Shown piece after piece: positions 8,995 to 41,048 of a stretch of DNA of 64,000 bases. Made by a program: the position numbers and the translations under genes. Position 1 is the stretch's first letter. Each line of letters begins with the position of its first letter. Under the pieces are notes generated by a model. It did not search any database, had not been told where the DNA came from, and saw only the letters and a program-made list of their open reading frames with translations. The DNA lies in assembly GCA_030390025.1 (NCBI GenBank), contig JASTWF010000180.1, positions 248,001 through 312,000 on the forward strand, given 5' to 3'. Source of the stretch: Squalus acanthias (Eukaryota).

Positions 8995-9033
8995 CACAGT
9001 GATGGGAACGAGCTAAAGCCTCGTACAATAACT
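8995..9033 (+). other. 23-RSS of V3
   Basis: CACAGTG + 23 bp + ACAATAACT. Confidence 0.95.
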
Positions 9034-11859: not shown

Positions 11860-12260
11860 CTTACCGAATGGATGCAGCTGCAGCAACACTCAAGAATTCA
11901 GGTGCCCAGAATTAGACGTAATACTTTGGCTGGGGTCTAACAAATGCTTTACTGAAGTTTAACTTAACTTCCTTCCTTTTGTACTCTATGCCTCGATTTC
12001 TAAAGCAAAGGAATTTGTTTGCCTTTTTAAGAGCCATCTCAGCTTGTCCTGCCACTCTCAAAATGTTGTGCACGTGCATCCCCAGGGCACTCTGTTCCTG
12101 CACCCGCTTTAAAATTGTACCAATTAGTTTAATTTGCTTCTCCTCGTGCTTCCTTCCAAAATGCATCACTTCACCCCACTTCACTGCTGTTAAATTGCAA
12201 CATGTGACACCTGACACCGAATGGCCTACTCCTGCTCCTATATTCTATGTTTCCTATCTT
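11860..12260 (-). mobile_element. CR1 fragment
   Basis: EVMHFGRK...RGIEYK...VRPQPKYYV. Confidence 0.8.
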
Positions 12261-13689
12261 CTATGTTTATGCCTGCATTTTTGATCGTGGGGATCAGCAA
12301 AGATTCCCCCTCCCTCTTTTTCCGGCAGCTATGCATCGTCACAATCTCTCCCCACCACGCGCTATGAACCATTCCCTTATACTGTTAATCTTAAAGCAAC
12401 TGCGACTGAAGTTTTTGGTCGTTTTGTAATGTTACCGTTTGAAAAATAATATCTTATATATTGAATTCTGGAATGAAGGACATACTCATGGAGACAGGAC
12501 TGAAACCCGGATGAGGTGGTTCCCCCGTGGCACTAACTACCCTACACATGTGATTAATTTCAGCATAGTGGAATGGCGCCTCCTGTTAGTTTCAGTCTGC
12601 TGGTAATCTAACGGGTTCAGCAGATATTTGGTGAAGGAGCTCATATTTCCCTCCGAGAAATTGCCAACATAGTAGTCTGATGACGGTAAGATAATTATCT
12701 TGAAGTGACAATATATCGGTTTGAATATAGAGGAAGATGTTCAGTATAATTCACTCACTCTCACTGAGACTGAGGTGGTTGACGAGGGGTCGGGTTTGAT
12801 TGACCATCTGCTGGGGACACACAAGTGAAAGTCTTCCTCTGGTCTCTCTGTGGAAATATCGTCTGAAAACCGTTATAACGAAATCGTAAGCTTATTCTTT
12901 TGGAATGCCTTCACCGGTTGGTTAGAAATAGCAACCAGAGGAAATCTATCGCACACAGCGGAAAGTTCAGTGTAACCACGAAACGTACATGACAATGAAG
13001 TTCATGCTCTCGCTGAGCCGTCACACACCGGCAGAGAAACAACAATCACTCAGTGTGACAGAGTCGGGTCCATTAAATAAAGCCCCAAACCTCAGCAAAG
13101 CTGAAGCTTTCCTCACATCAGAGGCTCCCACTGAGTGACTGATTCCACCTTGAGATACTTCAAGCTGTGGCTCAAAAGGGCTTCAGGTGACCCAGGACCA
13201 TCATTTAAATCTCCCTTCAATATATGGCGGATGAATTGGAGAATGCGTCACATTTCCAGGCTCTGACACACAATCAGTGGGTCCCGCGAAAGCTCAATAG
13301 AAAATATCGGAGGAAAAACAATCCTTAACATTAAAAACTGTTACCAATTGTCACAGTACAACACCAGTGTGAATTAGTAAACTTTAGCAGAACAGAGTTT
13401 GCCACTAAGTAGTGCAAAGTGCAGTGCACTATTGCTCACCTTTAGTCTTGTCCCTCAATCCCAGTTCATCTCTGGGTGATTGTTCCAAGATTCCCCCCAT
13501 CCTTTCAACACATATTTTACCGACATAATACCAGATCAATTTGAAATTGCACGCAGCTGCTGATAGCTGTTAAAAGACTAAACACATGCTTCCAAACAAA
13601 CATTATTGCATCCCCCACCCACGCTAATATACATCCTTGTGTATGTTACTATCTATCTTTCTACCTACCAACTGCCTATGTATCTATAT

Positions 13690-15670
13690 AACAGAGAAAT
13701 GTTATAGTACAGTAAGAACAGAGCAGGGCCTCGTTTGTTATTGACAGAATCAGGGTCTAATGCAGTAATCGAAGAAGCGGGGTCTAGTGTAATATAAAAA
13801 CAGACATGGTCCAGTGCATTTTTAAATGGATACTATCCTGGTGTAAAATAAACAGAGACAAGGCCTAGTGTCCTATAAATTGTGTAATATAAAGAGAAAC
13901 AGGTATCAGTGCAATATATACAGAGACATGGTCAAGTGCACTAATAACTGAAACAGGGTCTATTGTAATATAAAGAGAGACAAGATCTAGTGCAGTAATA
14001 ACTGAGATAGGTCCGATTGTAATATAAACAGAAACATGGTCTAGTGTAATATAAACAGAGATATGGTCTAGTGCAGTAATGGGTTGAGACGGGGCCAACT
14101 GTAATACAATCAGAAACATGTTCTAGTTTTTTTTCATTCGTTCATGGGATGTGGGCGTCGCTGGCAAAGCCGGAATTTATTGCCCATCACTAATTGCACT
14201 TCAGAAGATGGTGAGCCACCTTCTTCAACCGCAGAGGGCAGTTAAGAGTCAACCACGTTGCTGTGAGTCTGGAGTCACATATAGGCCAAACCAGGTAAGG
14301 ACGACACATTTCCTTCCCTAAAGGATATTAGTGAACCAGATGGGTTCTGGATTAGCTAGTCCAGTAGCATAAACACAATGCTACCGTACCCGCTGAAGTC
14401 TAGTACAGTAATAGGTTGAGACAGGCCCTAATGTAATACAAGCAGATACATGGTCTTGTGCAGTGATGACTGAGAGAGGGAAGTGTAATATAAAGAGTGC
14501 TATAGTCCAGTGCAATAATAACTGAGAGAGGGCCTACTGTAATATAAACAGAGTCAGGGTCCCGTGTACTTTAAACAGAAACATGGGCCCAAAAATTCAT
14601 CCCGGTGCGCGAGAGTACGCACTGCGTACTCTCGCGTATTCCCTCTGCAATTGCCGGTTTTCTGCATGCCCTGCGCATGCGCTGAAAACCGGCAATTGCT
14701 CTTTTGAAAAGGGCGGTTCCTCGGTGCATCGCGTGCGCGCTACAGGCTGCGCGCACGCTGTGCACTTCATGCTTTGGACGCGCAGGTAAGTACTGAAGAT
14801 TTTAGAAATGTAAAAAGGAGTAGTAAGACCCACTTTTAACAAGGTAAGTAGTGAATTAAGTATTTTTTTGAATTTTTTTTTACAGGTATATCTTTTTTAG
14901 AGACTTTAAAGACAGGTAAGTTTATTTTTATAACTTTTTAAAAGATTTAAAAAATTTTCAATAATTTAATTTTTTATTTAAAATGTTTAATTTATTTAAC
15001 TATACTTATTTTATTAATGTGATGTTTTTTTTTTTAAATTTAATTGAGGTTTAGCTGTTATTTTGGGGGGGTGTAACATTCATAGATTTCACTGCACGTC
15101 TGTGAAACTTATGAATGGAAGATGGTGTGCTGCCAATGGCTCTAACTGAGTCACGTGATCCCACAGCTCGCACGAATTCACTACGCCGGTGGGATACGCA
15201 AGCACTGCCCGGCTGATGTCTGGAACATCAAGTTCGTGCGAGCTGGATCTGAAAAAGCACAAGCGAGGTGAGAGTTCGCAGGGAAGGCTTACCCCCGCGG
15301 GAACAGAGCGAGATCAATTTCTGGGCCATGGTCTAGTGTGATAATAACTGAGACAGGGTCTAGTGTAATATAAACAGAGAAAGGGTCTAGTGTACTATAA
15401 ACAGAGACAGGGTCTATTTTAATATAAACAGAGGCAGGGTCTAGTGTGATAATAACTGAGACAGGGTCCTGTGTAATAAAAACAGAGAAGAGGGTCTAGT
15501 GTATTAATAACAGAGACAGGGGCTAGTGTAATATAATGAGTGACATGGACTAGTGAATTAAAAACTGAGTCAGGGGATGGTGTAATTTAAACAGAAACAT
15601 GATCTAGCGCAATATATGCAGGGACATAGTGTAGTGCAGTAATAAATTAGACCGGGTCTAGTGTAATATA
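13690..15670. repeat. ~27-bp minisatellite (GTCTAGTGTAATATAAACAGAGACAGG), interrupted by a LINE 3' fragment (14130-14390) and a MITE
   Basis: Direct tandem reading; also present in the duplicate at ~61270-62575. Confidence 0.85.
14586..15327. mobile_element. 742-bp non-autonomous DNA transposon (MITE), Harbinger-like
   Basis: Imperfect TIRs GGCCCAAAAATTCATCCCG / CGAGATCAATTTCTGGGCC, 3-bp TSD ATG; empty site ACATGGTCTA in the duplicate at ~62171. Confidence 0.85.
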
Positions 15671-15674
15671 AAAC

Positions 15675-17215
15675 AAATCCAGAAATAATGGGGAACCACG
15701 GGTCTAGTGAGAATCAGGAACTTAAAGAAATTATTATTAGTAGTACTGGAGAAATTAATGGGACTAAAAGCCAACAAATCCCGTGGACCTGACGCCCGAT
15801 ATCCTAGGTTTTTAAAAGTGGTGCCTGCAGAGACAGTGGTTGCATTGGTTTTGATCTTCCAGAATTCCCTATATTCTAGAACGGTCCATGTGGATTGCAA
15901 GGTAGCAAATATAACCCCGCTATTCAAGAAAGGAGTGAGACAGAAAACAGGGAACAATAGACCAGATAGCTTGACATCAGTAGTCAGGAAAATGATAGAA
16001 TCTATTATTAGGGACGTGGTAACATGGCACTTAGAAAATCATAATATGATTGGGCAGAGTCAACACGGATTTATGAAAGGGAAATCGGGTTTGACAAATC
16101 TAATAGATTTGTTTGAGGTTGTAGCTAGCAGGGTAAATAAGTGGCTGTAGTGTATTTCGATTTTCAGAAGGCATTCTATACAGTGCGACACTGGAGGTTA
16201 TTATCCAAAATTAGGGGTCATGGGATTGGGGGTAATATATTAGCATAGATTGCGGATTGGTTAACGGACAGAAAACAGAGTAGGAATAAACGGGTCATTT
16301 TCGGGCTGGCAGGCTGTAACTAGTGGGGTACCGCAAGGATCAGTGCTTGGCCTCATCTATTTACAATCTACATCAATGCCTTAGATGAGGGGACTAAGTG
16401 TAATGTATCCAAGTTTGCTGATGATGCAAAGGTACGTAGGAGAGGAAGTTGTGAGGAGGATGCAAAGAGGCTGCAAAGGGATACAGACAGATTAAATAAT
16501 GGGCAATAGCATGGCAGATGGAATGCAAACTAGAGAAATGTGAAGTTATCCACCTTTGTAGGAAAAATAGAAAAGCAGAATATGTTTTATACATTGAGAG
16601 ATTGGGAAATGTTGGTGTTCAGAGGGATCTGGCTGTCCCTGTACACGAATCACTAAAAGTTAACATGCAGGTATAGCAAGCAATTAGGAAAGCACATGGT
16701 ATGTTAGCCTTTATTAAAAAGGGATTGAAGTATAAGAGTAAATAAGTCTTACTGCAATTATATAGGGCCTTGGTGAGACCACACCGGGAGTACAGTTTTG
16801 GTCTCCTTAACTACGGAAGTATATACTTGCCTTAGAGGAAGTACAACGAAGGTTCACCAGACTAATTCCTTGGATGGGGGGATTGTCCTTGAAGAAGGAT
16901 TGAGAAAATTAGGCCTATATTCCCTAGAATGTAGAAGAATGAGAGGTGATCTCATTGAAGCATATAACATTCTTACAGGGCTTGACAGGGTCGATGCAGG
17001 GAGGATGTTTCCCCTGGCTGGGGAATCAAGAATCAGGGGTCACAGTCTCAGAATAAGGGGTCGGCCATTTAGGACTGAGATGAGGAGAAATTTCTTCACT
17101 CAACGGGTTGTTAATCTTTGTAATTCTCTACCCCAGAGGGTTATGGATGCTCAGTCGTTGAGTATATTCAAAACAGAGATCGATAGATTTTTGGATATTA
17201 AGGGAATCAAGGGTT
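15675..17215 (+). mobile_element. CR1 LINE fragment (RT), degenerate
   Basis: KSRGPD..YPRFLK, ANITPLFKKG, QHGFMKGKS, RNFFTQRVVNL. Confidence 0.9.
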
Positions 17216-18829: not shown

Positions 18830-19700
18830 TGCAATTTCTGCAGAACCTCCGCCCGCTGAAATCCCTTAAAAATCTTATGCCTGGTAAAAGCAGGCGAAAG
18901 GGATGCTTTTACAAGTATAAGAGTTTAAAAAGTTAAAAATGTTTTTAACTTATTTATAATTGTTAAATACTTTTTAAAAAGGTAAGTTCATTTTTAGTCC
19001 GGTAAAACTTTTATTTTTTCCCCAAAATTACATTTTTGTTTAAAATATTTAATTTAATGTAATTTTAGCTAATTTTATAAACGTGATTTGTTTTTAAATT
19101 TATTTAATGTTTTGTTCTGTTTTTGGAATAATCTCCATTCATATTTTTGACAGGTCTAAGCTCTTACGCCGGGTTGAAACTTGCTGCAATGAGCGCAGGG
19201 CGCATGAAACAGTCCACATTTCACATGCGTTTGCGTGACGAACAGTCGGCCATTTCGCTGTGACGTGCGGCGGTCATGTTTGTGTGACGTACAGCCGGCC
19301 ATGTTTTTGGGACGTGCCGTCGGCCATGTTTGTATGACGTACTGGTGGCCATGATTGGTCCACGTACTGTCGCCCATGTTTGTGTGACGTCTCGTCAGGT
19401 GAACCTATGTTTATTTTAATAAAACATCATGGTTGAAATAAAACATGACTTCAATTTCCACCAAAGAAGCCTTCTCACTTTCTAAATAAAAATAAGAGAA
19501 TTTACTGCCGTCATAAAGCTGCAGACAGCGACGATTAAAACCGGTCGCGAGTTGCGCATATGCGAAAAGAGCTCCCGAAGTGCAGCGCGGCCGAGATCCA
19601 CATCGGGGCATTTGTGTGCCGCTTAGCATTGTGGGAATCTCTGTCCTTCAATCATTGACAGGGTGTAATGCAACTGAAACACTTTTGCCAATTTAGTCCA
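18830..19700. mobile_element. Probable MITE-like element with AT-rich core and an internal ~25-bp tandem repeat (19245-19395)
   Basis: GC-rich/AT-rich architecture resembles 14586-15327; termini not clearly resolved. Confidence 0.4.
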
Positions 19701-20454
19701 GCCTCCTGAGGGGCTCCTGCCACACGGACCGAGCGCTCCGTATAGACTAATAGAACTTGGTCAGATTTATCCCAGGTAATCTAATGCACGGAAGTTAAAT
19801 GATGCGGCCAGAGACCAGAACAGCAAGAACAGAAAAAGAGTTCAGAAATCTCTCTATTTTCCCCGCAGGTCTGCCGAAACATTCAACTATGTTTCTCTTT
19901 CATGTTCTCTCCCATTCGGTTGTGTGTTTCCAACTCCTCTGTTTCCAAGTTTGGAAAGTTGCATCTATCTTTCCGTGGAGCTAAAAGAAAGTAATGTGTC
20001 AGAAAATTTTCCCAAGACCACAACTCATTAAATATCCGGTTTTGAAGGAATACACGGGATGAAATAACAAACACAGGAGGAATATGGGAACCAGATCCTG
20101 TCCTATTAACGAAGCGACCAGCAGGAAGTTCCTGGCGCTGTCAGCAAACCTCTTTCTCGGAGCTGATCGGAACATCGATCCATAACTTTAAGGGAAAACA
20201 GCTGATCAGAAGCAGAAAGGACAGCTTAACCGATCGATTCATTCTGCGATAGATCTTTCGGGCCGATTGGATTCTGCAGTTTGTTTTCTCAGCCGCTCCT
20301 GGAAGCAGTTGGGTGACAGTTTGATCAGAGGTTAATTTGGTTTCCTCTCGGTGTGTGTTTGAGCGCCTGACAGCGCGCTGCACATTGTGGCTGCATCTGC
20401 CCGCGATTCCACACAACCCCAACAGACAGGAGCTCCGCCCTACCGTCCAATGGC

Positions 20455-20493
20455 AGTTTTTGTACAGGGCTGAGACTGCTTTCCATCATTGTG
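20455..20493 (-). other. 23-RSS of V4
   Basis: Minus strand CACAATG + 23 bp + ACAAAAACT. Confidence 0.95.
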
Positions 20494-20963
20494 TGTCCCA
20501 GAGAGAATGCGCAGTAATACACGGCAGCGTCAGTCAGCTGCAGCCCGGAGATGGTTAAACTGGTGAATTTAGTCGAGGTCTTGAGCTCTACAGCGAAACG
20601 GGTTTTCGCAAAATCTGCTTTATCTTCAACACCGCTCGAGTATTTGTTCAGTATAAACTCGGGCTGTGTGTCTGGGTGTTGCCGGTACCAGTATAAATAA
20701 TAGCCGCTCTGTGTAGTATCATAGGTACAGTTTAAAGTCACCGCTTCTCCTTCTGTCTTAACTGCTGAGGACAGCGGCTGAGTGACAGAATCTCCAAGAC
20801 TCAGATCTGAAAAACATGTTCAAACAGAAAAAGATCAGACCGGCGGGTGTTTCAAATTCAGATTCAAACCATGTTAGAAATGAGAGAAAAGATGAGATGT
20901 GTTTGGTCCACAATTACCTGTCAGAAATGCCCCCCACACAGCCCAGATGCTGAGTAGCCGCAT
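20494..20963 (-). CDS. TRAV/DV: TCR alpha/delta-type V segment V4, apparently functional, inverted (exons 20963-20918 and 20806-20494)
   Basis: Leader MRLLSIWAVWGAFLT + GTAATT; open exon DLSLGDSVTQPLSSAVKTEGEAVTLNCTYDTTQSGYYLYWYRQHPDTQPEFILNKYSSGVEDKADFAKTRFAVELKTSTKFTSLTISGLQLTDAAVYYCAFSLG. Confidence 0.95.
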
Positions 20964-21748
20964 TGCCGCTGTCCGCTCTGTAAAAGGGGGGTTGGTTATT
21001 TGAAGACACCCGTTCTAAGCCCCGCCCTCAATAATCTGCTGTCGTGTCTCAGGATGCTCTCACCTCACTTCCTGGTGTCCCCAGTCGTGCTGTGAGACCG
21101 GTAGGTGGTGAGCTGGCTGCCAGTAAAAGGAAACACCCCGAACTGGGCCACAGTCAGTGTCCTTATAGGGGATGGGTTAGAGGCCATGTGTGGGAACGAA
21201 ACCCTTGTCTGATAATTGTAACCGGGAAGCTCAGGGATTGTTAATGGTGACAGAAAACATTCCAGCATTAGTGGGACATTCTGAAGGGCAATGGACTTTG
21301 GGGGAACTTTGTGCTTAGGGATTGTTTTAAAGAACACAATCACTAACTTGTGAAATCAGTTCAATGTGTATAAACTGTCTCTGGCCCAGCAACATACACT
21401 GATGAATAAAACTCTCTGTACAGGCCGCGATAAAAGGGTCCGGGAAACTGACATGGGAGATGTGCAAAGGGCTGCACAATATTGCAGGCAGGCACAGAAT
21501 GTGCATCAAAAGACAAAAGGGGAGTTAAGGCGCCACAGATGGATGTAGTGAACCACACATGCTGTTGCTGAGAATTTTCTTTTTTTTGCCCTTTTAGGAA
21601 TCTCCCTGCGATTCTCGCAGTGGGGGCTGAATTCTTGATTCTGTTTATCGGTGTGAAGGAGCCCTCTGGTGAGCACTAACTGGAACTCTCAGTGTGGGTT
21701 TTTGTGCGGGATCCGCCATATCTCTGCAGCAGTGTGGGGTCAATGGAG

Positions 21749-24700
21749 CACCTTTATCTCTCTCCCTCTGTTCGTGTCTCTCTGTATCACTGTGCTCAGT
21801 CACACCTTTATCTCTCTCCCTCTATTGGTGTCTCTGTATCGCTGTGCTCAGTCACACCTTTATCTCTCTCCCTCTGTTGGTGTGTCTCTCTTTATCACTG
21901 TACTCAGTCACACCTTTATCTCTCTCTCTCTGTTGGTGTCTCTTTGTATCACTGTGCTCAGTCACACCTTTATCTCTCTCCCTCTGTTGGTGTGTCTCTC
22001 TGTATCACTGTACTCAGTCACACCTTTATCTCTCTCCCTCTGTTGTTGTCTCTCTGTATCACTGTACTCAGTCACACCTTTATCTCTCTCCCTCTGTTGG
22101 TGTCTCTCTTTATCACTCTGCTCAGTCACACCTTTATCTCTCTCCCTCTGTTGGTGTCTCTCTGTATCACTGTACTCAGTCACACCTTTATCTCTCTCCC
22201 TCTGTTGGTGTCTCTCTTTATCACTCTGCTCAGTCACACCTTTATCTCTCTCCCTCTGTTGGTGTCTCTCTGTATCACTGTGCTCAGTCACACCTTTATC
22301 TGCTTTCCTCTGTTGGTGTCTCTGTATCACTGTACTCAGTCACACCTTTATCTCCTTTCCTCTGTTGGTGTCTCTGTATCACTGTGCTCAGTCACAGATT
22401 TATCACTCTCTCTCTGTTGGTGTCTCTCTGTATCAATGTACTCAGTCACACCTTTATCTCTCTCTCTCTCTCTGTTGGTGTCTCTCGGTATCACTGTACT
22501 CAGTCACATCTTTATCTCTCTCCCTCTGTTGGTGTCTCTCTGTATCACAGTGCTCAGTCACACCATTATCTCTCTCCCTCTGTTGGTGTCTCTGCATCAC
22601 TGTACTCAGTCACACCTTTATCTCACACCTTTATCTCTCTCCCTCTGTTGGTGTCTCTCTGTATCACTGTGCTCCGTCACACCTTTATTTCTCTCCCTCT
22701 GTTGGTGTCTCTGTATCACTGTGCTCAGTCACACCTTTATCTCTCTCCCTCTGTTGGTGTCTCTCTGTATCACTGTACTCAGTCACACCTTTATCTCTCT
22801 CCCTCTGTTGGTGTCTCTGTATCACTGTGCTCAGTCGCACCTTTATCTCTCTCCCTCTGTTGGTGTCTCTGTATCACTGTGCTCAGTCGCACCTTTATCT
22901 CTCTCCCTCTGTTGGTGTCTCTCTGTATCACAGTGCACAGTCACACCATTATCTCTCTCCTTCTGTTGGTGTCTCTGTATCACTGTGCTCAGTCACACCT
23001 TTATCGCTCTCCCTCTGTTGGTGTCTCTGTATCACTGTGCTCAGTCATACCTTTATCTCTCTCCCTCTGTTGGTTTCTCTGTATCGCTGTGCTCAGTCAC
23101 ACCTTTATCTCTCTCCCTCTGTTGTTGTCTCTCTGTATCACTGTGCTCAGTCGCACCTTTATCTCTCTCTCTCTGTTGGTGTCTCTCTGTATCACTGTGC
23201 TCAGTCGCACCTTTATCTCTCTCCCTCTGTTGGTGTCTCTCCGTATCACTGTACTCAGTCACACCTTTATCTCTCTCCCTCTGTTGGTGTCTCTCCGTAT
23301 CACTGTACTCAGTCACACCTTTATCTCTCTCCCTCTGTTGGTGTCTCTCTGTATCACTGTTTTCAGTCACACCTTTATCTCTCTCCCTCTGTTGGTGTCT
23401 CTTTGTATCACTGTGCTCAGTCACACCTTTATCTCTCTGCCTCTGTTGGTGTCTCTCTGTATCATTGTAATCAGTCATGCCTTCATCTCGCGCGCTCTAT
23501 TGATGTCTCTCTGTATCACTGTGCTCAGTCACACCTTTATCTCTCTCCCTTTGTTGGTGTCTCTCTTATCACTGTACTCAGTCACACCTTTAACTCTCTC
23601 TCTCTCTGTTGGTTTCTCTCTGTATCACTGAACTCAGTCACACCTTTATCTCTCTCCCTCTGTTGGTGTCTCCGTATCACTGTACTCAGTCACACCTTTA
23701 TCTCTCTCCCTCTGTTGGTGTCTCTCTGTATCACTGAACTCAGTCACACCTTTATCTCTCTCCCTCTGTTGGTGTCTCTCTCTATCACTGTACTCAGTCA
23801 CACCTTTATCTCTCTCCCTCTGTTGGTGTCTCTCTGTAGCACTGTGCTCATTCACACCTTTATCTCTCTCCCTCTGTTGGTGTCTTTCTGTATCACTGTG
23901 CTCAGTTTCACCTTTATCTCTCTCCCTCTGTTGGTGTCACTCTGTAGCACTGTGCTCAATCACACCTTTATCTCACTCCCTCTGTTGGTGTCTCGCTGTA
24001 TCACTGTGCTCAGTCGCACCTTTATCTCTCTCCCTTTGTTGGTGTCTCTCTTATCACTGTACTCAATCACACCTTTAACTCTCTCTCTCTCTGTTGGTGT
24101 CTCTCTGTATCACTGTGCTCAGTCACACCTTTATCTCTCTCCCTCTGTTGGTGTCTCTCTGTATCACTGTACTCAGTCACACCTTTATCTCTCTCTCTCT
24201 GTTGGTGTCTCTCTGCATCACTGTGCTCAGTCACACATTTACTCTCTCCCTCTGTTGGTGTCTCTGTATCACTGTATTCAGTCACACTTTTATCTCACAC
24301 CTTTATGTCTCTCCCTCTGTTGGTGTCTCTCTGTATCACTGTGCTCAGTCACACCTTTATCTCTCTCCCTCTGTTGGTGTCTCTCTTATCACTGTACTCA
24401 ATCACACCTTTAACTCTCTCTCTCTCTGTTGGTGTCTCTCTGTATCACTGTGCTCAGTCACACCTTTATCTCTCTCCCTCTGTTGGTGTCTCTCTGTATC
24501 ACTGTGCTCAGTCACACCTTTATCTCTCTCCCTCTGTTGGTGTCTATCTGTATCACAGTGCTCAGTCACACCATAATCTCTCTCCATCTGTTGGTGTCTC
24601 TGTATCACTGTGCTCAGTCACACCTTTATCTCTCTCCCTCTGTTGGTGTCTCTCTGTATCACTGTACTCAGTCACACCTTTATCTCTCTCCCTCTGTTGG

Positions 24701-27700
24701 TGTCTCTGTATCACTGTACTCAGTCACACCTTTATCTCTCTCCCTCTATTGGTGTCTCTCTGTATCACAGTGCTCAGTCACACCATTATCTCTCTCCCTC
24801 TGTTGGTGTCTCTGTATCACTGTACTCAGTCACACCTTTATCTCTCTCCCTCTATTGGTGTCTCTCTGTATCACAGTGCTCCGTCACACCTTTATCTCTC
24901 TCCCTCTGTTGGTGTCTCTCTGTATCACTGTGCTCAGTCACACCTTTATCTCTCTCCCTCTGTTGGTGTCTATCTGTATCACAGTGCTCAGTCACACCAT
25001 TATCTCTCTCCATCTGTTGGTGTCTCTGTATCACTGTGCTCAGTCACACCTTTATCTCTCTCCCTCTGTTGGTGTCACTCTGTATCACTGTACTCAGTCA
25101 CACCTTTATCTCTCTCCCTCTGTTGGTGTCTCTGTATCACTGTGCTCAGTCACACCTTTATCTCTCTCCCTCTATTGGTGTCTCTCTGTATCACTGTGCT
25201 CAGTCACACCATTATCTCTCTCCCTCTGTTGGTGTCTCTGTATCACTGTACTCAGTCACACCTTTATCTCTCTCCCTCTATTGGTGTATCTCTGTATCAC
25301 AGTGCTCAGTCACACCATTATCTCTCTCCCTCTGTTGGTGTCTCTGTATCACTGTACTCAGTCACACCTTTATCTCTCTCCCTCTGTTGGTGTCTCTCTG
25401 TATCACTGTGCTCCGTCACACCTTTATCTCTCTCCCTCTGTTGGTGTCTCTGTATCACTGTGCTCAGTCACACCTTTATCTCTCTGCCTCTGTTGGTGTC
25501 TCTCTGTATCACTGTACTCAGTCACACCTTTATCTCTCTCCCTCTGTTGTTGCCTCTCTGTATCACTGTGCTCAGTCACACCTTTATCTCTCTCCCTCTG
25601 TTGGTGTCACTGTATCACTGTTTTCAGTCACACCTTTATCGCTCTCCCTCTGTTGGTGTCTCTGTATCGCTGTGCTCAGTCACACGTTATCGCTCTCGCT
25701 CTGTTGGTGTGTCTTTGTATCACTGTGCTCAGTCACACCTTTATCTCTCTCCCTCTGTTGGTATCTCTCTGTATCACTGTGCTCAGTCACACCTTTATCT
25801 CTCTCCCTCTGTTGGTATCTCTCTGTATCACTGTACTCAGTCACACCGTTATCTCTCTCCCTTTGTTGGTGTCTCTCTTATCACTGTACTCAGTCACAGT
25901 TTAACTCTCTCTCTCTCTGTTGGTGTCTCTCTGTATCACTGTGCTCAGTCACACCTTTATCTCTCTCCCTCTGTTGGTGTCTCTCTGTAGCACTGTGCTC
26001 ATTCACACCTTTATCTCTCTCCCTCTGTTGGTGTCTCTCTGTATCACTGTGCTCATTCACACCTTTATCTCTCTCCCTCTGTTGGTGTCTCTCTGTATCA
26101 CTGTGCTCAGTCTCACCTTTATCTCTCTCCCTCTGTTGGTGTCACTCTGTAGCACTGTGCTCAATCACACCTTTATCTCACTCCTTCTGTTGGTGTCTCT
26201 CTGTATCACTGTAATCAGTCATGCCTTCATCTCGCGCGCTCTATTGATGTCTCTCTGTATCACTGTACTCAATCACACCTTTATCTCTCTCCCTCTGTTG
26301 GTGTCTCTCTGTATCACTGTGCTCAATCACACCTTTATCTCTCTCCCTCTGTTGGTGTCTCTCTGTATCACTGTGCTCAGTCACACCTTTATCTCTCTCT
26401 CTCTGTTGCTGTCTCTCTGTATCACTGTGGTCAGTCACACCTTTATCTCACTCCCTCTGTTGGTGTCTCACTGTATCACTGTGCTCAGTCACACCATTAT
26501 CTCTCTCCCTCTGTTGGTGTCTCTGTATCACTTTGCTCAGTCACACCTTTATCTCTCTCCCTCTGTTGGTGTCTCTCTGTATCACTGTGCTCCTTCACTC
26601 CTTTATCTCTCTCCCTCTGTTGGTTTCTCTCTGTATCACTGTGTTCAGTCACACCTTTATCTCTCTCTCTCTCTGTTGGTGTCTCTGGAGCACTGTGCAC
26701 AGTCGCACCTTTATCTCTCTCCCTCTGTCGCTGTCTCTCTGTATCACTGTGGTCAGTCACACCTTTATCTCTCTCCCTCTGTTGGTGTCTCTCTGTATCA
26801 CTGTGCTCAGTCACACCTTTATCTCTCTCCCTCTGTTGGTGTCTATCTGTATCACTGTGGTCAGTCACACCTTTATCTCTCTCCATCTGTTGGTGTCTCT
26901 CTGTATCACTGTAATCAGTCATGCCTTCATCTCGCGCGCTCTATTGATGTCTCTCTGTATCACTGTACTCAATCACACCTTTATCTCTCTCCCTCTGTTG
27001 GTGTCTCTCTGTATCACTGTGCTCAATCACACCTTTATCTCTCTCCCTCTGTTGGTGTCTCTCTGTATCACTGTGCTCAGTCACACCTTTATCTCTCTCT
27101 CTCTGTTGCTGTCTCTCTGTATCACTGTGGTCAGTCACACCTTTATCTCACTCCCTCTGTTGGTGTCTCACTGTATCACTGTGCTCAGTCACACCATTAT
27201 CTCTCTCCCTCTGTTGGTGTCTCTGTATCACTTTGCTCAGTCACACCTTTATCTCTCTCCCTCTGTTGGTGTCTCTCTGTATCACTGTGCTCCTTCACTC
27301 CTTTATCTCTCTCCCTCTGTTGGTTTCTCTCTGTATCACTGTGTTCAGTCACACCTTTATCTCTCTCTCTCTCTGTTGGTGTCTCTGGAGCACTGTGCAC
27401 AGTCACACCTTTATCTCTCTCCCTCTGTTGGTGTCTCTCTGTATCACTGTGCTCAGTCACACCTTTATCTCTCTCCCTCTGTTGGTGTCTATCTGTATCA
27501 CTGTGGTCAGTCACACCTTTATCTCTCTCCATCTGTTGGTGTCTCTGTATCACTGTATTCAGTCACTCCTTTATCTCTCTCTCTCTGTTGGTGTCTCTGT
27601 ATCGCTGTGCTCAGTCACACCTTTATCTCTCTCCCTCTGTTGGTGTCTATCTGTATCACTGTGCTCAGTCACACCTTTATCTCTCTCCCTCTGTTGCTGT

Positions 27701-29640
27701 CTCTCTGTATCACTGTGGTCAGTCACACCTTTATCTCTCTCCATCTGTTGGTGTCTCTGTATCACTGTATTCAGTCACACCTTTATCTCACACCTTTATC
27801 TCTCTCCCTCTGTTGGTGTCTCTCTGTATCACTGTACTCAGTCACACCTTTATCTCTCTCCCTCTGTTGGTGCCTCTCTGTATCACTGTGCTCAGTCACA
27901 CCTTTATCTCTCTCCCTCTGTTGGTGTCTCTGTATCACTGTTTTCAGTCACACCTTTATCGCTCTCCCTCTGTTGGTGTCTCTGTATCGCTGTGCTCAGT
28001 CACACGTTATCGCTCTCGCTCTGTTGGTGTCTCTTTGTATCACTGTGCTCAGTCACACATTTATCTCTCTCCCTCTGTTGGTGTCTCTCTGTATCACTGT
28101 GCTCAGTCACACCTTTATCTCTCTCCCTCTGTTGGTGTCTCTGTATCACTGTGCTCAGTCACACCTTTATCTCTCTCTCTCTGTTGGTGTCTCTGTATCA
28201 CTGTGCTCAGTCACACCTTTATCTCACTCCCTCTGTTGGTGTCTCTCTGTATCACTGTGCTCAGTCACACCATTATCTCTCTCCCTTTGTTGGTGTCTCT
28301 CTTATCACTGTACTCAGTCACACCTTTAACTCTCTCTCTCTCTGTTGGTGTCTCTCTGTATCACTGTGCTCAGTCACACCTTTATCTCTCTCCCTTTGTT
28401 GGTGTCTCTCTTATCACTGTACTCAGTCACACCTTTAACTCTCTCTCTCTCTGTTGGTGTCTCTCTGTATCACTGTGCTCAGTCACACCTTTATCTCTCT
28501 CCCTCTGTTGGTGTCTCTCTCTATCACTGTACTCAGTCACATCTTTATCTCTCTCCCTCTTTTGGTGTCTCTCTGTACCACTGTGCTCATTCACACCTTT
28601 ATCTCTCTCTCTCTGTTGGTGTCTCTCTGTATCACTGTGCTCAGTCGCACCTTTATCTCTCTCCCTCTGTTGGTGTCTCTCTGTATCACCGTGCTCAGTC
28701 ACACATTTATCTCTCTCCCTTTGTTGGTGTCTCTCTTATCACTGTACTCAATCACACCTTTAACTCTCTCTCTCTCCCTCTGTTGGTGTCTCTCTGTATC
28801 ACTGTACTCAATCACACCTTTAACTCTCTCTCTCTCTCTCTGTTGGTGTCTTTCTGTATCACTGTGCTCAGTCACACCTTTATCTCTCTCCCTCTGTTGG
28901 TGTCTCTCTGTATCACTGTGCTCAGTCTCACCTTTATCTCTCTCCCTCTGTTGGTGTCACTCTGTAGCACTGTGCTCAGTCACAGCTTTATCTTTCTCCC
29001 TCTGTTGGTGTCTCTCTGTATCACTGTGCTCAGTAGCACCTTTATCTCTCTCCCTCTGTTGGTGTCACTCTGTAGCACTGTGCTCAATCACACCTTTATC
29101 TCTCTCCCTCTGTTGTTGTCTCTCTGTATCACTGTGCTCAGTCTCACCTTCATCTCACTCCCTCTGTTGGTGTCTCTGTATCAGTGTGCTCAATCACACC
29201 TTTATCTTACTCCCTCTGTTGGTGTCTCTGTATCACTGTGCTCAGTCACACCTTTATCTTTCTCCCTCTGTTGGTGTCTCTCTGTATCACTGTGCTGAGT
29301 CATACCTTTATCTCTCTCCCTCTGTTGGTGTCTCTCTGTATCACTGTGCTCCTTCACTCCTTTATCTCTCTCCCTCTGTTGGTTTCTGTCTGTATCACTG
29401 TGCTCAGTCACACCTTTATCTCTCTCTCTCTCTGTTGGTGTCTCTGTATCACTGTGCACAGTCACACGTTTAGTTCTCTCCCTCTGTGTGTCTCTCTGTA
29501 TCACTGTGCTCAGTCACAGCTTTATCTCTCTCCCTCTGTTGGTGTCTCTCTGTATCACTGTGCTCAGTCACACCTTTATCTGTCTCCCTCTGTTGGTGTG
29601 TCTTTGCATTACTGTACTCAGTCATAGCTTCATCTGTCTG
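21749..29640. repeat. ~7.9 kb minisatellite, 54-bp unit (52-bp variants), about 145 copies
   Basis: Unit CACCTTTATCTCTCTCCCTCTGTTGGTGTCTCTCTGTATCACTGTGCTCAGTCA; internal 700-bp higher-order duplication (26241/26941). Confidence 0.98.
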
Positions 29641-30544
29641 CCACTGTTCTGTGTATCTCTTTATCAATCAGACTATCCCCAAATCATGTCCTCTAGAAGT
29701 GCCAGTGATATTCTGAAATGTTACATTCCCGTATTTAATATCCACCTGGATATAGTGACATTATCCTATAGATCTAACTACCAATTCAATGTGGAAAATT
29801 ACATTAACCACTTGGGCATAAAAATAACTGACGCAAGTAAGGACATCATACAAAGTAATAAAATGGCAGCAGTTTTCGTAATAATAACAACAGCAATAAT
29901 AACAATATTAATAACAAAAACTTACAGCAATAGTAATAATAATCTAGTGTAAGCATGCAGCAATGTTCGCTCATACATTGAGAATTCATGTTTCGCAGAC
30001 TGGCTTCCAGTTCTCTCCTGTTGCCAATAGATGGCGCTCCAGCACCGTGTTTGAGTTTCCACTGCTCCATATCGTGGGTTTGGCATTTGTTACGCGGGTC
30101 GGCGATTCCTCTCAATGAAACTGCGCATGTTCATCACACCATTGCATGTTGGTCCCTTCCTGTACGTCAGACCAACGAGGGATGGGCTTTCTGACTCGGC
30201 TCGGAGACGGTATGAAAACTGTGGGTTTCTTCTTTAAACTTGTTGTTCATTCCCAGCACACAGAGCCGGAGATTCAGGAACAGCTCGGCCCATCGGTGAT
30301 CTCCGGGACACCGCTCTGTGCAAATGAACTCGATCGCTGAAAAATAATTAAGCCCAGCTCTGAGGTACTGTCACCCTGAGCAGTTAGGGCTGCAGTCTCC
30401 TGCATACAGTGTCTGTGACAGGTGACACGACGTTGCGATACACACAGGTACAGGAGTGTAGTGTTTATGGGAGTAGAGTAGCAACGCTGATCTAACGAGT
30501 TTTCATCCCACGTTGGCAAGTTAGAACGTTGAGTTCAATGAATC

Positions 30545-31000
30545 AGATAAGACTTGCATTTATATAGCAACTTTCACGACCTCAGGTCGTCCTAAATCGC
30601 TTTACAGCCACTTTTTGAAGTATAGTTACTGTTGTAATGCAGGAAATTCGACAGCCAAAATGTGCACAGCAAGATCCCAGAAACAGCAATGTTCTAATGA
30701 CCAGATAATCTGGTTTAGTGATGTTGATTGAGGGATAAATATTGCCTCCAGCGAGACCTCTCCTCCTCTTCTTCGAAATAGTGGCCGTGCGATCTGTTCC
30801 GTCTACATTGAGGGGGCAGAGCGGGCCTGGGCTCAACGCCCCATCTGAAGGATGGCACCTCCGACAGTGCAGCACCCACTCAGTACTGCATTGGAGTGCC
30901 AGCTTAGCATTTTTGTGCTGAAGTCTCTGGAGTGGAACACCACAAGTGAACTCACAAACATTCTGACTCAGAGGCGAGGGTGCTACCCGCTGAGCCACGG
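30545..31000 (-). mobile_element. DeuSINE-like SINE (SacSINE1/AmnSINE group)
   Basis: AAGACTTGCATTTATATAGC..TTTCACGACCTCAGG.. tail and tRNA-like head; related pieces at ~17990-18280, 49720-49825 and 55635-55915. Confidence 0.65.
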
Positions 31001-31059
31001 CTGATACTGACATTTTGGGGAGGTGGGGTGGGGGGGGGATCTGAGAGCACTAAGGTAGT

Positions 31060-34000
31060 GTAGGAGTCCCCTGAGCCCAAACTGCTCACCAACCAGTATT
31101 CGGTGCTGAGTGGGGGCGATGTTTCCTCTGGGGAGTGCAGCCAGAGCAAGTCCACAGCACCATGGAAGGCTCATCTGCACAGAGGAGGTGGGGTGGGGGT
31201 GGGAGGGGGGGTGCTGGCTAAGAGGAGAGGGAGAGCAATAGTGATAGGGGATTCAATAGTTAGGGGAGCAGACAGCCGTTTCTGCGGCCGCAGACGTGAC
31301 TCCACGATGCTATGTTACCTCCCTGGTTCCAGGGTCAAGGTTGTCACTGAACGGCTACAGGGAATTCTGCGAGGGGGAGGGTGAACAGCCAGAGGTCGTG
31401 GTCCATATCGGTACCAACGACATAGGTAGAAAGAGGGATGAGGTCCTGTAGGCAGAGTTTAGGGAGCTAGGAAAGAGGTTAAAAAGCAGGACCTCAAAGG
31501 TAGTAATCTCAGGATTACCCCAGTAACAGGCGCTAGTGAGTACAGGCATAGGAAGATGGAGCAAATGAAAGCGTGGCTGCAGATATGGTGTAGGAGGGAA
31601 GGCTTCAGATTCATGAGGATTTGGAACCGTTTCTGGGGGAGATGGGACCTCTATAAGCCAGATGGTTTGCACCTCAACGGGAACGGGATCAATATCCTCG
31701 CGGGAGGGTTTGCTAGTGCTGTTGGGGAGGGTTTAAACTAGTTTGGCAGGGGGATGGGAACCTAAGAGTAGAGTCAGTAGGGAGGGAAGTCAAACTGGAA
31801 TTGGAAAACAAAAAACGTAGAAAGTAACTTGGAAGGACAGAGGAATCAAGGGCTAGATAGTAGTCAACAAGGAGGTTTGCTTGTACTAAATGGTATATAC
31901 TTCAATGCAAGGAGCATAGCGAATAAGGCAGATGAGCTGAGGGCACAAGTAGATACTTGGGACTATGATATTATAGCTATTACAGAGACGTGGCTGAAAG
32001 AGGGGCAGGTATGGCAGCTCAACATCCCTGGTTACAGGATTTTCAGACGTGATAGAGAGGGAGGTAAAAAGGGAGGGGGTCGCGGTATTGATTAAATAAA
32101 CTATTACAGCTGATATGTTGGAGGGATCATCAAACGAGGCCATATGGGTCGAATTCAAAAACAAAAAAGGGGCGATCACACTGCTGGGAGTGTACTACAG
32201 ACCCCCAAACAGTGAGAGGAAGATAGAAGAGCAAATATGTCGACACATTTCTGAGAAGTGCAAAAACTTCAGGGGAGTAATAGTAAGGGATTTCAGCTAC
32301 CCCAATATTAACTGGGATAAAATTCGTGTGAAGGGTATAGAGGGTGCAGAATTCCTAAAATGCATCCAGGAGAACTTTTTTTAGCCAGTATGTAGCAAGC
32401 CCAACAAGAGAGGGGGCGGTTCTGGACTTAGTTTTGTGAATGAAGCTGGGCAGGTAGAAGGCTTATCAGTGGGGAACCATTTTGGTGCTAGAGACCATAA
32501 TTCAGTTGGAAGTAAGGTAGTTATGGAAAAGGACAAGGATAGACCGGGAATAAAAATTCTAAAATGGGGAAAAGCAAATTTTGCTAAGCTCAGAGGGGAT
32601 TTAGCCACAGTGGACTGGAAACAGCTACTTGAAGGTTAATCAGTGTCAGAGCAGTGGGAGGCATTCAAGGAGGAGATCCGGCGGGTTCAGAACAAATATG
32701 TGCCCTTAAAGAAAAAAGGTGGGACTAACAAATCTAGAGCCCCCTGGATGTCTAGTGACATACAGGGTACGATAAATAAAAAAGGGAGGCGTATGACAGA
32801 TACCGAGGGCTAAATACTCCAGAATCTTTAGAGCAGTGCAGAAAGTGCAGGGGTGCAATTAAAAAGGATATTAGGAAAGCAAAGAGAGAGCATGAAAAAT
32901 TCTTGGCAAGAAAAATCAAGGAAAACCCAAAGATGTTTTATAAATATATTAAGAGGAAGAGGATAACTAAAGAAAGGGTAGGACCTATTAGAGATCATGA
33001 GGGTAATCTGTGTCTGGAGGCGGGAGACGTCGGTAGGGTTCTTAATGAATACTTTGCGTCTGTTTTCACAAAGGAGAGGGGCGAAACAGACATTGCTATC
33101 AGGGAGGAGGAAAGTGAAATATTAGATGAAATAAACATAGTCAGAGAGGAAGTATTAAGGGCTTTAGCAGCTGCAGAAGTGGATAAATCCCCAGCCGCGG
33201 ATGAAACGTATCCCAGGCTGTTAAGCGAAGCACAAGAGGAAATAGCAGAGGCCCTGACCATCATTTTCAAATCATCTCTGGCTTCAGGTGTGGTGCCGGA
33301 GGGCTGGAGGACTGCTAATGTGGTACCCTTGTTTAAAAAGGGAGGTAAGGATAGACCGAGTAATTACAGGCCACTCAGCCGAACCTCGGTGGTGGGTAAA
33401 TTATTGGAAAGAATTCTGAAGGACAGGATAAATCTTCATTTAGAAAGATACGGATTAATCAAGGATAGTCAACACGGATTTGTTAAGGAAAGTGACCTGA
33501 CGAAAGGTCTTCGACCTGAAACGTTAACGCTGTTTCTCTCTCCACGGATGCTGCCTGGCCTGCTGAGTTTTTTCCAGCGTTTTCTGTTGTTATTTCGGAT
33601 TTCCATCACCCGCAGTATTTTGCTATTATGTTATTTGTTAAGGGAAGGTCGTGTCTGACAAACTTGATTGAATTTTTTGAGGAGGTAACAAGGAGGGTAG
33701 CAGAAGATAGTGCGTTTGATGTAGTGTATATGAACTTTAGCAAGGCTTTTGATAAGGTTTCACATGGCTGACTGGTCACGAAGTTAAAAGCCCGTGGGAT
33801 CCAGGGCAAAGTGTCAAGTTGGATCCAAAACTGGCTCGGAGGCAGGAAGCAGAGGGTAATGGTTGATGGGTGGTTTTGTGATTGGAATGCTGTTTCCAGT
33901 GGGGTTCCGCAGGGCTCAGTACTGGGTTCCTGCTTTTTGTGGTATATATCAATGATCTAGACTTGAATATAGGGGGTATGATTAAGAAGTTTGCAGACGA

Positions 34001-35075: not shown

Positions 35076-35891
35076 ATGAGGATCGAGATCCGAATAAGGT
35101 TAATCCTCTTCAATCTGCCAATATTCTTCTCAGGTGGGTTACACTTTAGATTTTTGCAGATTAACTTTCAAGTAATCCCTTTACACCTCCTTATTTAGTT
35201 GTTGGACTTTGACGAGGGAAACAACCCGTCAGTAGCTTTAGTAATGGGAAAGCAAAACTAGGGGTCATAAATATAAGATAGTCACAAATAAATCCATTGA
35301 GGAATTCAGAAGAAACCTCTTTAGTGAGAGAATGTTTAGAATGTGGAACTCGCTACCACATGGAGTGGTTGAGGCGAATAGCGCAGATGTCCTTCAGGGG
35401 AAGGTTGATAACTGCACGAGGGAGAAAGGAATAGCCGGCTATGTTGATAGTGTGTATAATTAAATTGGGAGCCTAAACACCAGTATAGACCTGTTGGGCG
35501 GAATGGCCAGTATCTGCGCTGTAAAATGCAATGTGATTCTATGTAGCTAAACGCACGTACTGTTGTTTATTCCCATCCTTTGGCCCCTGGGTTTGATTAT
35601 ATGTCGCAGATGTCCCAGCCAAAGACGAGATATCCCAGTCTCCGCCGACGCTGGTCGCTATGGAAGGGTCCTCGATAACAATGAACTGCAGCACCAGCAT
35701 TCTGCTCAGCTTCACGCAATGGTACCGGCGCTACCCCGGCCGCAATCCGCAACTGGTGGCGACCGCGCTGGACGGCGATGTCAAGCCGGGGAGAATTTGG
35801 GCGACTCTGAATCGAGCCCAGAAGTACAGCGGTCTGACCGTCGGAGAGGTCGCGACAACGGACGCCGCCACCTACTTGTGTGCGGTGATCG
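35076..35891 (+). CDS. TRAV/DV: TCR alpha-like V segment V5, apparently functional (exons 35076-35133 and 35610-35891)
   Basis: Leader MRIEIRIRLILFNLPIFFS + GTGGGT; open exon DVPAKDEISQSPPTLVAMEGSSITMNCSTSILLSFTQWYRRYPGRNPQLVATALDGDVKPGRIWATLNRAQKYSGLTVGEVATTDAATYLCAVI; CR1 fragment in the intron. Confidence 0.88.
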
Positions 35892-35930
35892 CACCGTGTT
35901 GCAATCCAACGAGGGGCCAGTACAAAAACC
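35892..35930 (+). other. 23-RSS of V5
   Basis: CACCGTG + 23 bp + ACAAAAACC. Confidence 0.95.
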
Positions 35931-36915: not shown

Positions 36916-37025
36916 GACAATGCGATCACGCTTTTGATGTGCGCGAGATTGTCTCTCCGCCTGTTGGGATTTATTATTCACGGTGTCTCCACTTTATCTG
37001 GCTGTTTTTCCTCTGTGTCCTTTAG

Positions 37026-37332
37026 ACAACGTTCCTGGATCGATCACTCACCAGCCAAAGGCAGAGGTGAACGTTCAAGAGGGAGAGATCGCGACCATAA
37101 CCTGCTCCTATACAGGGGGGAGGAGCGTTTGCCTATACTGGTACCGGGAGGGCCGGTCCGAGGGGCCGGAGTATATCCTCATCCGCTGTACCGACGGGTT
37201 CAGCGACAATGCGGCGTTTGCAAGGCAGCGCTTCAGCTCATCTTTGGCCAAAACATACAAAGCCGTCAGTTTAACGGTTTCACAGGTGACAGCTGCGGAT
37301 TCCAGGAAGTACTTCTGTGTTTTAACACCGCA
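37026..37332 (+). CDS. TRAV/DV: TCR delta/alpha-type V exon V6 with two non-canonical cysteines; leader uncertain
   Basis: Acceptor at 37024-37025; open exon DNVPGSITHQPKAEVNVQEGEIATITCSYTGGRSVCLYWYREGRSEGPEYILIRCTDGFSDNAAFARQRFSSSLAKTYKAVSLTVSQVTAADSRKYFCVLTP; candidate leader 36937-36982 would need a 43-nt intron. Confidence 0.88.
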
Positions 37333-37371
37333 CACAGCGGTGTACTCAGGGCAAGAGCCTATACATAAACT
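37333..37371 (+). other. 23-RSS of V6
   Basis: CACAGCG + 23 bp + ACATAAACT. Confidence 0.92.
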
Positions 37372-37457: not shown

Positions 37458-38619
37458 NNNNNNNNNNNNNNNNNNNNNNNNNNNNNNNNNNNNNNNNNNN
37501 NNNNNNNNNNNNNNNNNNNNNNNNNNNNNNNNNNNNNNNNNNNNNNNNNNNNNNNNNNNNNNNNNNNNNNNNNNNNNNNNNNNNNNNNNNNNNNNNNNNN
37601 NNNNNNNNNNNNNNNNNNNNNNNNNNNNNNNNNNNNNNNNNNNNNNNNNNNNNNNNNNNNNNNNNNNNNNNNNNNNNNNNNNNNNNNNNNNNNNNNNNCA
37701 GACCGACAGACGAATAGATGATAGAGAGACAGACAGAGCAAGAGGCAGAGGGACAGATGGAGAGATGCATATAGATAAATAGACGGACAGACAACCAAAC
37801 AGATAGACAGACNNNNNNNNNNNNNNNNNNNNNNNNNNNNNNNNNNNNNNNNNNNNNNNNNNNNNNNNNNNNNNNNNNNNNNNNNNNNNNNNNNNNNNNN
37901 NNNNNNNNNNNNNNNNNNNNNNNNNNNNNNNNNNNNNNNNNNNNNNNNNNNNNNNNNNNNNNNNNNNNNNNNNNNNNNNNNNNNNNNNNNNNNNNNNNNG
38001 CATCCGTGGAGAGAGAAAGAGAGTTAACGTTTCAGGTCGATGACCTTTCATCAAAACTGGGAAGAGCCGGAAATCAAATCTATTTGATTTCCGGCTCTTC
38101 CCAGTTCTGATGAAAGGTCATCGACCTGAAACGTTAACTCTCTTTCTCTCTCCACGGATGCTGCCTGGCCTGCTTAGTTTTTCCAGCGTTTTCTGTTGTT
38201 ATTTCGGATTTCCAGCATCCGCAGTATTTTGCTATCGTAGATAGATAGATAGACGGACTGATATATAGATAGACAGATAGACAGATAGATAGATAGACAG
38301 ATAGATAGTCGGATAGATAGATAGATAGACAGACAGACAGATAAATAGCCAGATNNNNNNNNNNNNNNNNNNNNNNNNNNNNNNNNNNNNNNNNNNNNNN
38401 NNNNNNNNNNNNNNNNNNNNNNNNNNNNNNNNNNNNNNNNNNNNNNNNNNNNNNNNNNNNNNNNNNNNNNNNNNNNNNNNNNNNNNNNNNNNNNNNNNNN
38501 NNNNNNNNNNNNNNNNNNNNNNNNNNNNNNNNNNNNNNNNNNNNNNNNNNNNNNNNNNNNNNNNNNNNNNNNNNNNNNNNNNNNNNNNNNNNNNNNNNNN
38601 NNNNNNNNNNNNNNNNNNN
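37458..38619. other. Three N runs (37458-37698, 37813-37999, 38355-38619) interleaved with GATA/GACA microsatellite
   Basis: Direct reading. Confidence 0.98.
38103..38139 (+). ncRNA. Minimal hammerhead ribozyme in the right arm of a 162-bp inverted repeat (38000-38161)
   Basis: AGTT-CTGATGA-A-AGGTC-ATC-GACCT-GAAA-CGTT-AACT: intact core, stem I AGTT/AACT, stem II, palindromic AACGTT. Confidence 0.8.
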
Positions 38620-40785: not shown

Positions 40786-41048
40786 ATCATACATCCCCTT
40801 TTCAATGCAGAACGAAAGACACTCAGAAAGTAACACGCTTGGTAAATTAGATTCACTGAATGCTGCGTCAGTCTATTGGCAATCGCCGCCGGTAATCAGA
40901 GTCCAATTCATCTCAGTTTGTGGGGCCCTGAACCAGGGCCGCAGTTATCCGGATTTTCCTGAAGTGCTGGTGTATTTACTCCATCTTCTCAAAGCAGGGA
41001 AGTAGATGGCGAGGTAGAGGATACTCAAGGAGTACGGAAGCCATTTCA

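Follow-up and report, generated by a model that had tools for sequence, protein, structure and literature searches.

A 64,000-nucleotide stretch of the spiny dogfish (Squalus acanthias) genome (assembly GCA_030390025.1, contig JASTWF010000180.1, positions 248,001 to 312,000 of the forward strand, here called the window) harbors a 7.9-kb minisatellite with a 54-bp unit. The array is embedded in a cluster of variable (V) gene segments, in which eight V exons (V1 to V8) are each terminated by a recombination signal sequence with a spacer of about 23 bp (23-RSS), and its units all bear a heptamer-like site on their minus strand. On balance, the array is regarded as a passenger minisatellite that is historically tied to a V-type 23-RSS, which survives as its last unit; it is probably a passenger because only half of a RAG signal is carried. 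The unit itself is best described as a putative heptamer-only cryptic RAG site, with at most rare off-target activity, since it combines a good heptamer and spacer start with the lack of a working nonamer, and appears to be neither a 12-RSS nor a selected decoy. The weights given here to competing explanations are a matter of judgement, not of computation.

The 54-bp unit and its two halves

The array and the features directly related to it are the following (positions in the window):
21697–21736, minus strand: orphan RSS with heptamer CACACTG, 24-bp spacer and perfect nonamer ACAAAAACC, on the same strand as the array sites, V exon absent
21737–21748, minus strand: 12-bp segment outside the repeat that separates the orphan heptamer from the intact array, being either what is left of a V 3' end, a decayed unit or a junction insert
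21749–29666, minus strand: main minisatellite, 146 units, modal length 54 bp, one heptamer-like site per unit
22255–22282, minus strand: example of the modal unit core, CACAGTG, ATACAGAGAGAC and pseudo-nonamer ACCAACAGA (5/9)
26186–27405: higher-order duplication within the array, 700 bp (519 bp exact)
58777–59039, minus strand: second array of the 54-bp unit, about 5 copies, 2 of them with the exact 28-mer of the core

The main array has a period of 54 bp and comprises 146.8 copies with 86% matches. An earlier note on this DNA had placed a 7.9-kb array among 23-RSS V segments at 21749–29640; array and setting are confirmed, but the true end lies at 29666, 26 bp further. The 28-mer quoted there was located precisely at 22282–22255 on the minus strand. 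The units show a mean identity of 94.8% to the modal unit, 110 of the 145 complete ones are distinct, and length variants arise via AG slippage. Both array edges align as decayed units running into unique flanks. Head-to-tail units of tens of bases with interspersed variants are characteristic of a variable number tandem repeat (VNTR), and the 146 copies represent a single amplified event and not 146 independent observations.

Only the heptamer half of the unit is RSS-like. It starts with CAC and displays the consensus CACAGTG, and the first 14 bases of the unit are identical to the consensus human 12-RSS printed in PMC5203794, with 19/28 matches over the whole signal. The earlier remark that the published 12-spacer consensus starts like the unit is thus borne out. 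In the SARP-seq table of PMC9723617, CACAGTGAT is second-ranked among AT-spacer heptamers. Dinucleotide shuffling of the unit yields the heptamer alone in 13,354 of 166,404 cases (8.0%) but the 13-base match of heptamer plus ATACAG in just 23, so that the latter is unusual. Among the 146 units, the heptamer reads CACAGTG in 82, TACAGTG in 38 and otherwise in 26, with CAC at its start in 96. The distance to the pseudo-nonamer is 12 bp in 100 units, 10 bp in 37, 11 bp in 7 and 14 bp in 2, which places the pseudo-nonamer, itself not a real nonamer, at 11 or 12 bp in 107 units. The perfect heptamer with an exact 12-bp spacer claimed before is present in 65 of 146 units (full 28-mer identical in 30), yet no real nonamer fixes this spacing; the accompanying caveat about TACAGTG and 10-bp-spacer units applies to 38 and 37 units, respectively.

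The nonamer half does not qualify. ACCAACAGA indeed matches the nonamer consensus at 5/9 positions, as had been counted, but this is not above chance, with P(≥5/9) = 0.116 at the A-rich composition of the array strand. A match of at least 5/9 is reached at 6 of the 54 unit offsets, and a 10-bp spacing gives 6/9, better than the 12-bp one. Therefore, the spacer of 'exactly 12' bp has no real nonamer defining it. The mismatches of ACCAACAGA fall on positions 3, 6 and 8, which are invariant in all eight local RSSs, and on position 9, where all eight have C or T. In PMC12711392, a screen that ran in a mouse 23-RSS context and not in a shark 12-RSS, ACCAACAGA does not figure among the top 1,000 of 262,144 nonamers by prediction. 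It also lacks the purine-A/T-purine (RWR) motif at positions 4–6 given in the same source; no RWR occurs there at spacings of 10–14 bp. Two double-change nonamers that were looked up are likewise not in that top-1,000 table, in which 4 of 6 terms were found overall.

In a local heptamer-plus-nonamer matrix, which was built from the eight 23-RSSs of the window and is not a recombination information content (RIC) score, the modal unit reaches 9.2 bits, compared to leave-one-out scores of 17.7–22.9 bits for the eight true RSSs. No credible 12-RSS was detected in the window with this matrix: the top 12-bp score, 13.1 bits, belongs to the array unit at 28585 (minus strand), the sole unit with an A at nonamer position 6 (6/9). 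The coding side of every unit heptamer is the next repeat unit and not a joining (J) or diversity (D) segment. Other ways of reading the unit as a signal were rejected, with 2 to 4/9 nonamer matches at 21–25 bp for a 23-RSS and 0–2/9 for the plus-strand CACs. The proposed cryptic 12-RSS therefore retains its heptamer and spacer start, while its nonamer fails.

Among the 54 positions of the unit, variation peaks at the first C of the heptamer, which is changed in 46 of 145 units (34% when only distinct units are counted); spacer bases are deleted in 43 of 145 units, and the consensus A at nonamer position 6 is found in 1 of 145; since the units are not independent, these figures provide a ranking and not a test. 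CAC and spacer length, which are conserved in 12-RSSs, are not conserved here. There is no sign of selection for RAG recognition in the array, and the suggested RAG decoy or landing array is unsupported, with CAC as the least conserved part of the unit.

Several further candidates were considered for the array and discarded. Long open reading frames across it are a mere consequence of the stop-free repeat. An internal structure of the unit as a diverged dimer is not significant (261–834 of 1,000 shuffles equally good), nor is kinship to six other repeat regions (77–367 of 400). An insertion of the array into a V exon was rejected, as no exon remnant is present on either side. A search for Rfam structured RNA in 19000–33000 gave 0 matches. 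Array translations found no relative among 6,837 and 7,999 candidates, which says nothing about sharks; a further translation search returned 6 weak matches, the 4 inspected ones being unrelated low-complexity repeats, and neither the unit nor the left flank had any exact match in the prokaryotic genomes scanned (0 loci), both results being equally uninformative for sharks.

An orphan signal at the left edge and the origin of the array

At the left edge of the array, a complete RSS is found at 21736–21697. Its heptamer CACACTG is identical to that of V7 and its nonamer matches 9/9; only three perfect nonamers exist in the window, namely those of this orphan RSS, V5 and V7. A CAC heptamer, a consensus nonamer and a 24-bp spacer, within the tolerance of 23 ± 1 (PMC212687), identify the site as a 23-RSS. 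Held out of the training set, it scores 23.5 bits in the local matrix, ranks 3 of 15,102 CAC-by-spacer combinations and exceeds the leave-one-out scores of all eight true RSSs; a score this high was equalled in 0 of 200 simulated 55-kb windows.

The same site is part of the repeat. The orphan heptamer and the first 9 spacer bases correspond to the decayed last unit of the array (13/16 identical), and the heptamer is located in register, 58 bp from the previous array heptamer. No site outside the arrays matches the unit better than these 16 bases, and three sites in all reach 13/16. The orphan spacer matches the unit at 8/12 positions, a value reached by 0.8% of shuffles ungapped and by 117 of 3,000 gapped. 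Accordingly, a single site serves as both array end unit and full RSS. Were it an end unit alone, the nonamer would be a coincidence of about 1e-4, the probability under a Markov background of so good a nonamer at one of the six spacings. As the score of the orphan RSS exceeds those of the true RSSs, a V-type 23-RSS and not a 12-RSS was probably the source of the repeat or its recombination partner. The earlier idea of an amplified relic of a real RSS thereby gains support, but the relic points to the V-type 23-RSS at the edge instead of a 12-RSS.

Two routes, about equally likely, may have led to this arrangement. In the first, a stretch containing a V-type heptamer and about 9 spacer bases would have been tandemly duplicated, with the nonamer left in the original copy only. 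This route accounts for the 14-base match. In the second, a pre-existing repeat would have recombined with an RSS via shared bases, with loss of the V exon; the absent exon and the RSS-free second array are accounted for, while the 14-base match is left to chance. Slippage and unequal exchange would then have enlarged the array, made its units more uniform and placed a copy at the second site.

A number of observations weigh against an origin linked to a V-type 23-RSS or against a unit reduced to its heptamer. The link between orphan and array was found post hoc and concerns one site. The orphan spacer is 24 and not 23 bp long, and the V7 spacer matches the unit almost as often (7/12 vs 8/12). 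Neither tblastn nor a DNA profile built from the eight V exons revealed a V exon remnant by the orphan or at either array end. The second array differs in its flanks and has no RSS. The first route leaves the missing V homology in the unit body unexplained: derivation of the unit from a V 3' coding end was rejected, as its resemblance to the V3 end is not significant (190/3,000 shuffles upstream; 481/3,000 combined). Concerning the signal itself, CACAGTGAT is among the most active heptamer-spacer starts in PMC9723617, and the unit beats background in that, at 12 bp, its score is reached by only 7 of 1,823 CAC sites outside the array. Variation is lower in the pseudo-nonamer columns (2.1%) than elsewhere in the unit (4.6%), the state retained in these columns being the non-consensus one. 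Apart from the mouse 23-RSS context of the nonamer screen, single changes at position 6, 8 or 9 remain within its top-1,000 nonamers (PMC12711392), and the poor cryptic nonamer of LMO2 still yielded 1% of signal joints (PMC9723617).

It is conceivable, although rather unlikely, that the whole association is coincidental and that the array is an ordinary CA/GA-rich shark minisatellite unrelated to any RSS and devoid of function. The heptamer would then result from composition, as its presence in 8.0% of unit shuffles would allow, the orphan heptamer would be a decayed end unit, the right edge of the array being decayed to a similar degree, and the nonamer would be due to chance or belong to an unrelated element. 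Such a view fits the unit body without V homology, the second array 29 kb away in unrelated flanks, the other minisatellites of the window (25, 27, 28 and 35 bp) and the abundance of tandem repeats in some elasmobranch genomes (10.1101/2025.06.08.657570). However, it needs two independent rarities, the 13-base match (23/166,404) and a perfect nonamer at an allowed spacing (~1e-4), and the unit is without significant kinship to the window's other minisatellites and without significant dimer structure.

Geometry, RAG access and known systems

The V segments that surround the array are arranged as follows:
4730–5068, plus strand: V1, pseudogene (frameshift and stop), 23-RSS at 5030
6406–6762, plus strand: V2, pseudogene (stop and frameshift), 23-RSS at 6724
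8683–9033, plus strand: V3, open exon, 23-RSS at 8995
20454–20963, minus strand: V4, leader, intact V exon and 23-RSS, heptamer at 20493
35602–35930, plus strand: V5, open exon, 23-RSS at 35892
37024–37371, plus strand: V6, open exon, 23-RSS at 37333
46710–47046, plus strand: V7, open exon, 23-RSS at 47008
50098–50434, plus strand: V8, in-frame stop close to the exon start, 23-RSS at 50396

The array sites are convergent with V1–V3 and share the orientation of V4, as had been noted before, and V5–V8 are divergent relative to them. The location of seven of the eight V segments on the plus strand suggests that J lies to the right. If so, the array would have the orientation and spacer class of J, and, judged from mammalian data, RAG would have to load on a V signal before a V could be joined to the array. 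In mouse, RAG scanning from the recombination centre uses only convergent cryptic sites (10.1101/2020.06.30.181222), and diffusional, orientation-free joining requires strong RSSs (PMC11153149).

It seems improbable that a minisatellite derived from the heptamer of a T-cell receptor (TCR) V 23-RSS and multiplied to 146 copies forms a dense RAG target whose many weak sites jointly give rise to measurable V-to-array joins and to V deletion or inversion in thymocytes or germ cells; if it did, array joins would help to reshape the shark TCR locus. Slightly less probable still is a working cryptic 12-RSS array that is under selection and pairs with the V 23-RSSs as a decoy, a landing pad or a source of V-deleting joins. 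The 65 of 146 units with a perfect heptamer at 12 bp, the near-optimal spacer start and the convergence with V1–V3 argue for a working array, as does the finding that cryptic signals of the mouse gamma-satellite recombine and are cut in cells (PMC2193808); in mouse thymocytes, moreover, sequence scores are poor predictors of which cryptic sites recombine (10.64898/2026.09.01.748595). It is at odds with CAC and spacer length as the most variable features, with V1 and V2 being pseudogenes, with both mouse constraints on scanning and diffusional joining, and with the orientation shared with J, should J lie to the right. Rare off-target RAG cutting of the array is nevertheless plausible by analogy, because of the joints obtained with the poor LMO2 nonamer, the recombination and cutting of gamma-satellite units, and the poor predictive value of the scores.

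If it works at all, the array would act as a satellite-borne cryptic RAG site, which is a known kind; it is outside the 12-RSS family because nonamer, flanking coding segment and conservation are all lacking. The closest parallel is the mouse gamma-satellite (Cowell et al. 2003, PMC2193808), likewise a tandem unit with CAC-led, RSS-like sites multiplied by amplification. Its signals are of the 23-type with near-threshold RIC scores in a 234-bp unit, and the three signals tested there showed activities of 0.6%, 0.02% and an undetectable level. In contrast, the shark unit measures 54 bp, resides inside a TCR V cluster, lacks a nonamer and has an orphan RSS as its last unit. Cryptic RSSs of mouse TCR beta (10.64898/2026.09.01.748595) and those used in Igh scanning (10.1101/2020.06.30.181222) are also CAC sites of V regions and low-frequency RAG off-targets, but they are single-copy and convergent with the recombination-centre RSS, whereas the shark sites are tandem and probably in J-like orientation. 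With a bona fide J or D 12-RSS, the unit shares the heptamer and the first 7 spacer bases of the printed consensus (PMC5203794); it differs in lacking a nonamer and a coding segment and in its unconserved CAC.

The cryptic RSSs of immunoglobulin (Ig) kappa inactivation and heavy-chain V (VH) replacement are incomplete as well and, paired with a real RSS, bring about the deletion or replacement of segments. They are single and conserved in position; the shark units show no such conservation. From an ordinary VNTR, which it resembles in its short unit, 95% homogeneity, AG-slippage variants, higher-order duplication, decayed edges and nearby second copy, the array differs in that its end unit doubles as a complete RSS. 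A literature search, with most subscription papers outside its reach, retrieved no account of a minisatellite linked with a V(D)J signal in a shark locus. As a passenger, the array is of little consequence, since cryptic RAG sites in satellites have been on record since 2003. If its link to the orphan holds, the array would represent a traceable case in which a V(D)J signal seeded a minisatellite or was fused to it, and a natural test of how large a load of nonamer-less heptamers is tolerated by an antigen-receptor locus and of whether copy number compensates for the missing nonamer.

Further explanations of the array or its left edge fare worse. A germline RAG signal joint is highly unlikely; here, the 23-RSS would have been cut at its heptamer and linked, via 12 G-rich bases added in between, to one of the array's plus-strand CACs, and the V exon would have been excised. 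RAG-like germline joining has been reported for shark Ig genes (PMC2193156), the V exon is missing, and the intact array begins precisely at a plus-strand CAC that lies 12 bases away from the orphan heptamer. Yet a junction at such a CAC is common by chance because three of them occur per 54-bp unit, these sites have 0–2/9 nonamer matches, and the 13/16 similarity between orphan and unit would be left unexplained. Just as unlikely is a descent of the unit, by amplification, from a real J or D 12-RSS whose nonamer decayed later: the first 14 bases equal the published consensus (19/28 overall, PMC5203794) and the remaining 5/9 lie at the correct distance, but 5/9 is chance-level, the window's best 12-bp score is that of an array unit (13.1 bits), and the only real RSS attached to the array has a 24-bp spacer. 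Least probable is an assembly artefact in array length or left junction, which three N gaps at 37.4–38.6 kb, indicating a scaffolded assembly, and the 519-bp exact internal duplication might suggest, and against which 110 distinct units among 145 and the decay of both edges into unique flanks argue.

The V-segment cluster and neighboring repeats

The window represents a V-segment cluster of a cartilaginous fish with three broken members (V1, V2 and V8). The best protein matches of V4 are from Chiloscyllium punctatum (67% identity) and Callorhinchus milii, the top named ones ranging from 57 to 67%. Leader and exon of V4 are similar to rearranged receptor chains among these matches, and relatives with solved structures include TCR alpha and delta chains besides many antibody fragments. 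The cluster is thus tentatively assigned to the TCR alpha/delta type. V4 is oriented opposite to the seven other V segments and still possesses a leader, an open exon and a good RSS, which suggests that inversional joining is tolerated in the locus. A truncated ninth V (1990–2240, minus strand) consists of a leader-like exon and the start of a V exon up to the first cysteine; it abuts a long interspersed nuclear element (LINE) fragment where it is cut, and its RSS is absent. V5–V8, the second array and the orphan RSS had not been mentioned in the earlier note.

One hundred array units match, with 2 mismatches, what we take to be a CTCF-type consensus. A tandem CTCF-like block could impede loop extrusion, but the signal is weak, given that chance alone is expected to produce 22 such matches per window. 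The same presumed motif occurs exactly at 2769–2781, upstream of the truncated V, with 1 mismatch at 30024–30036, to the right of the array, and with 2 mismatches at 21660–21672, 25 bp past the orphan nonamer.

The flanks of the second array are unrelated to those of the main array, no RSS adjoins it, and it is truncated where a 3.2-kb duplication begins. A segmental duplication of two blocks with about 97% identity connects 11404–17090 and 59037–64000; one of its copies starts exactly at the cut point of the small array, off any heptamer border. The minisatellites of the window also include periods of 25, 27, 28 and 35 bp. Among these, a 35-bp minisatellite of 36 copies begins about 90 bp past the V8 RSS (50524–51889), and a 27-bp family resides in the duplicated blocks (13882–15672 and 61469–62570); neither shows significant similarity to the 54-bp unit. 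The three N gaps (241, 187 and 265 bases) are situated among TAGA repeats just past V6 (37458–38619). Finally, a 572-aa open frame at 40932–42650 (plus strand) presumably encodes a reverse transcriptase with a GIY-YIG-type end, which we take to be Penelope-like.

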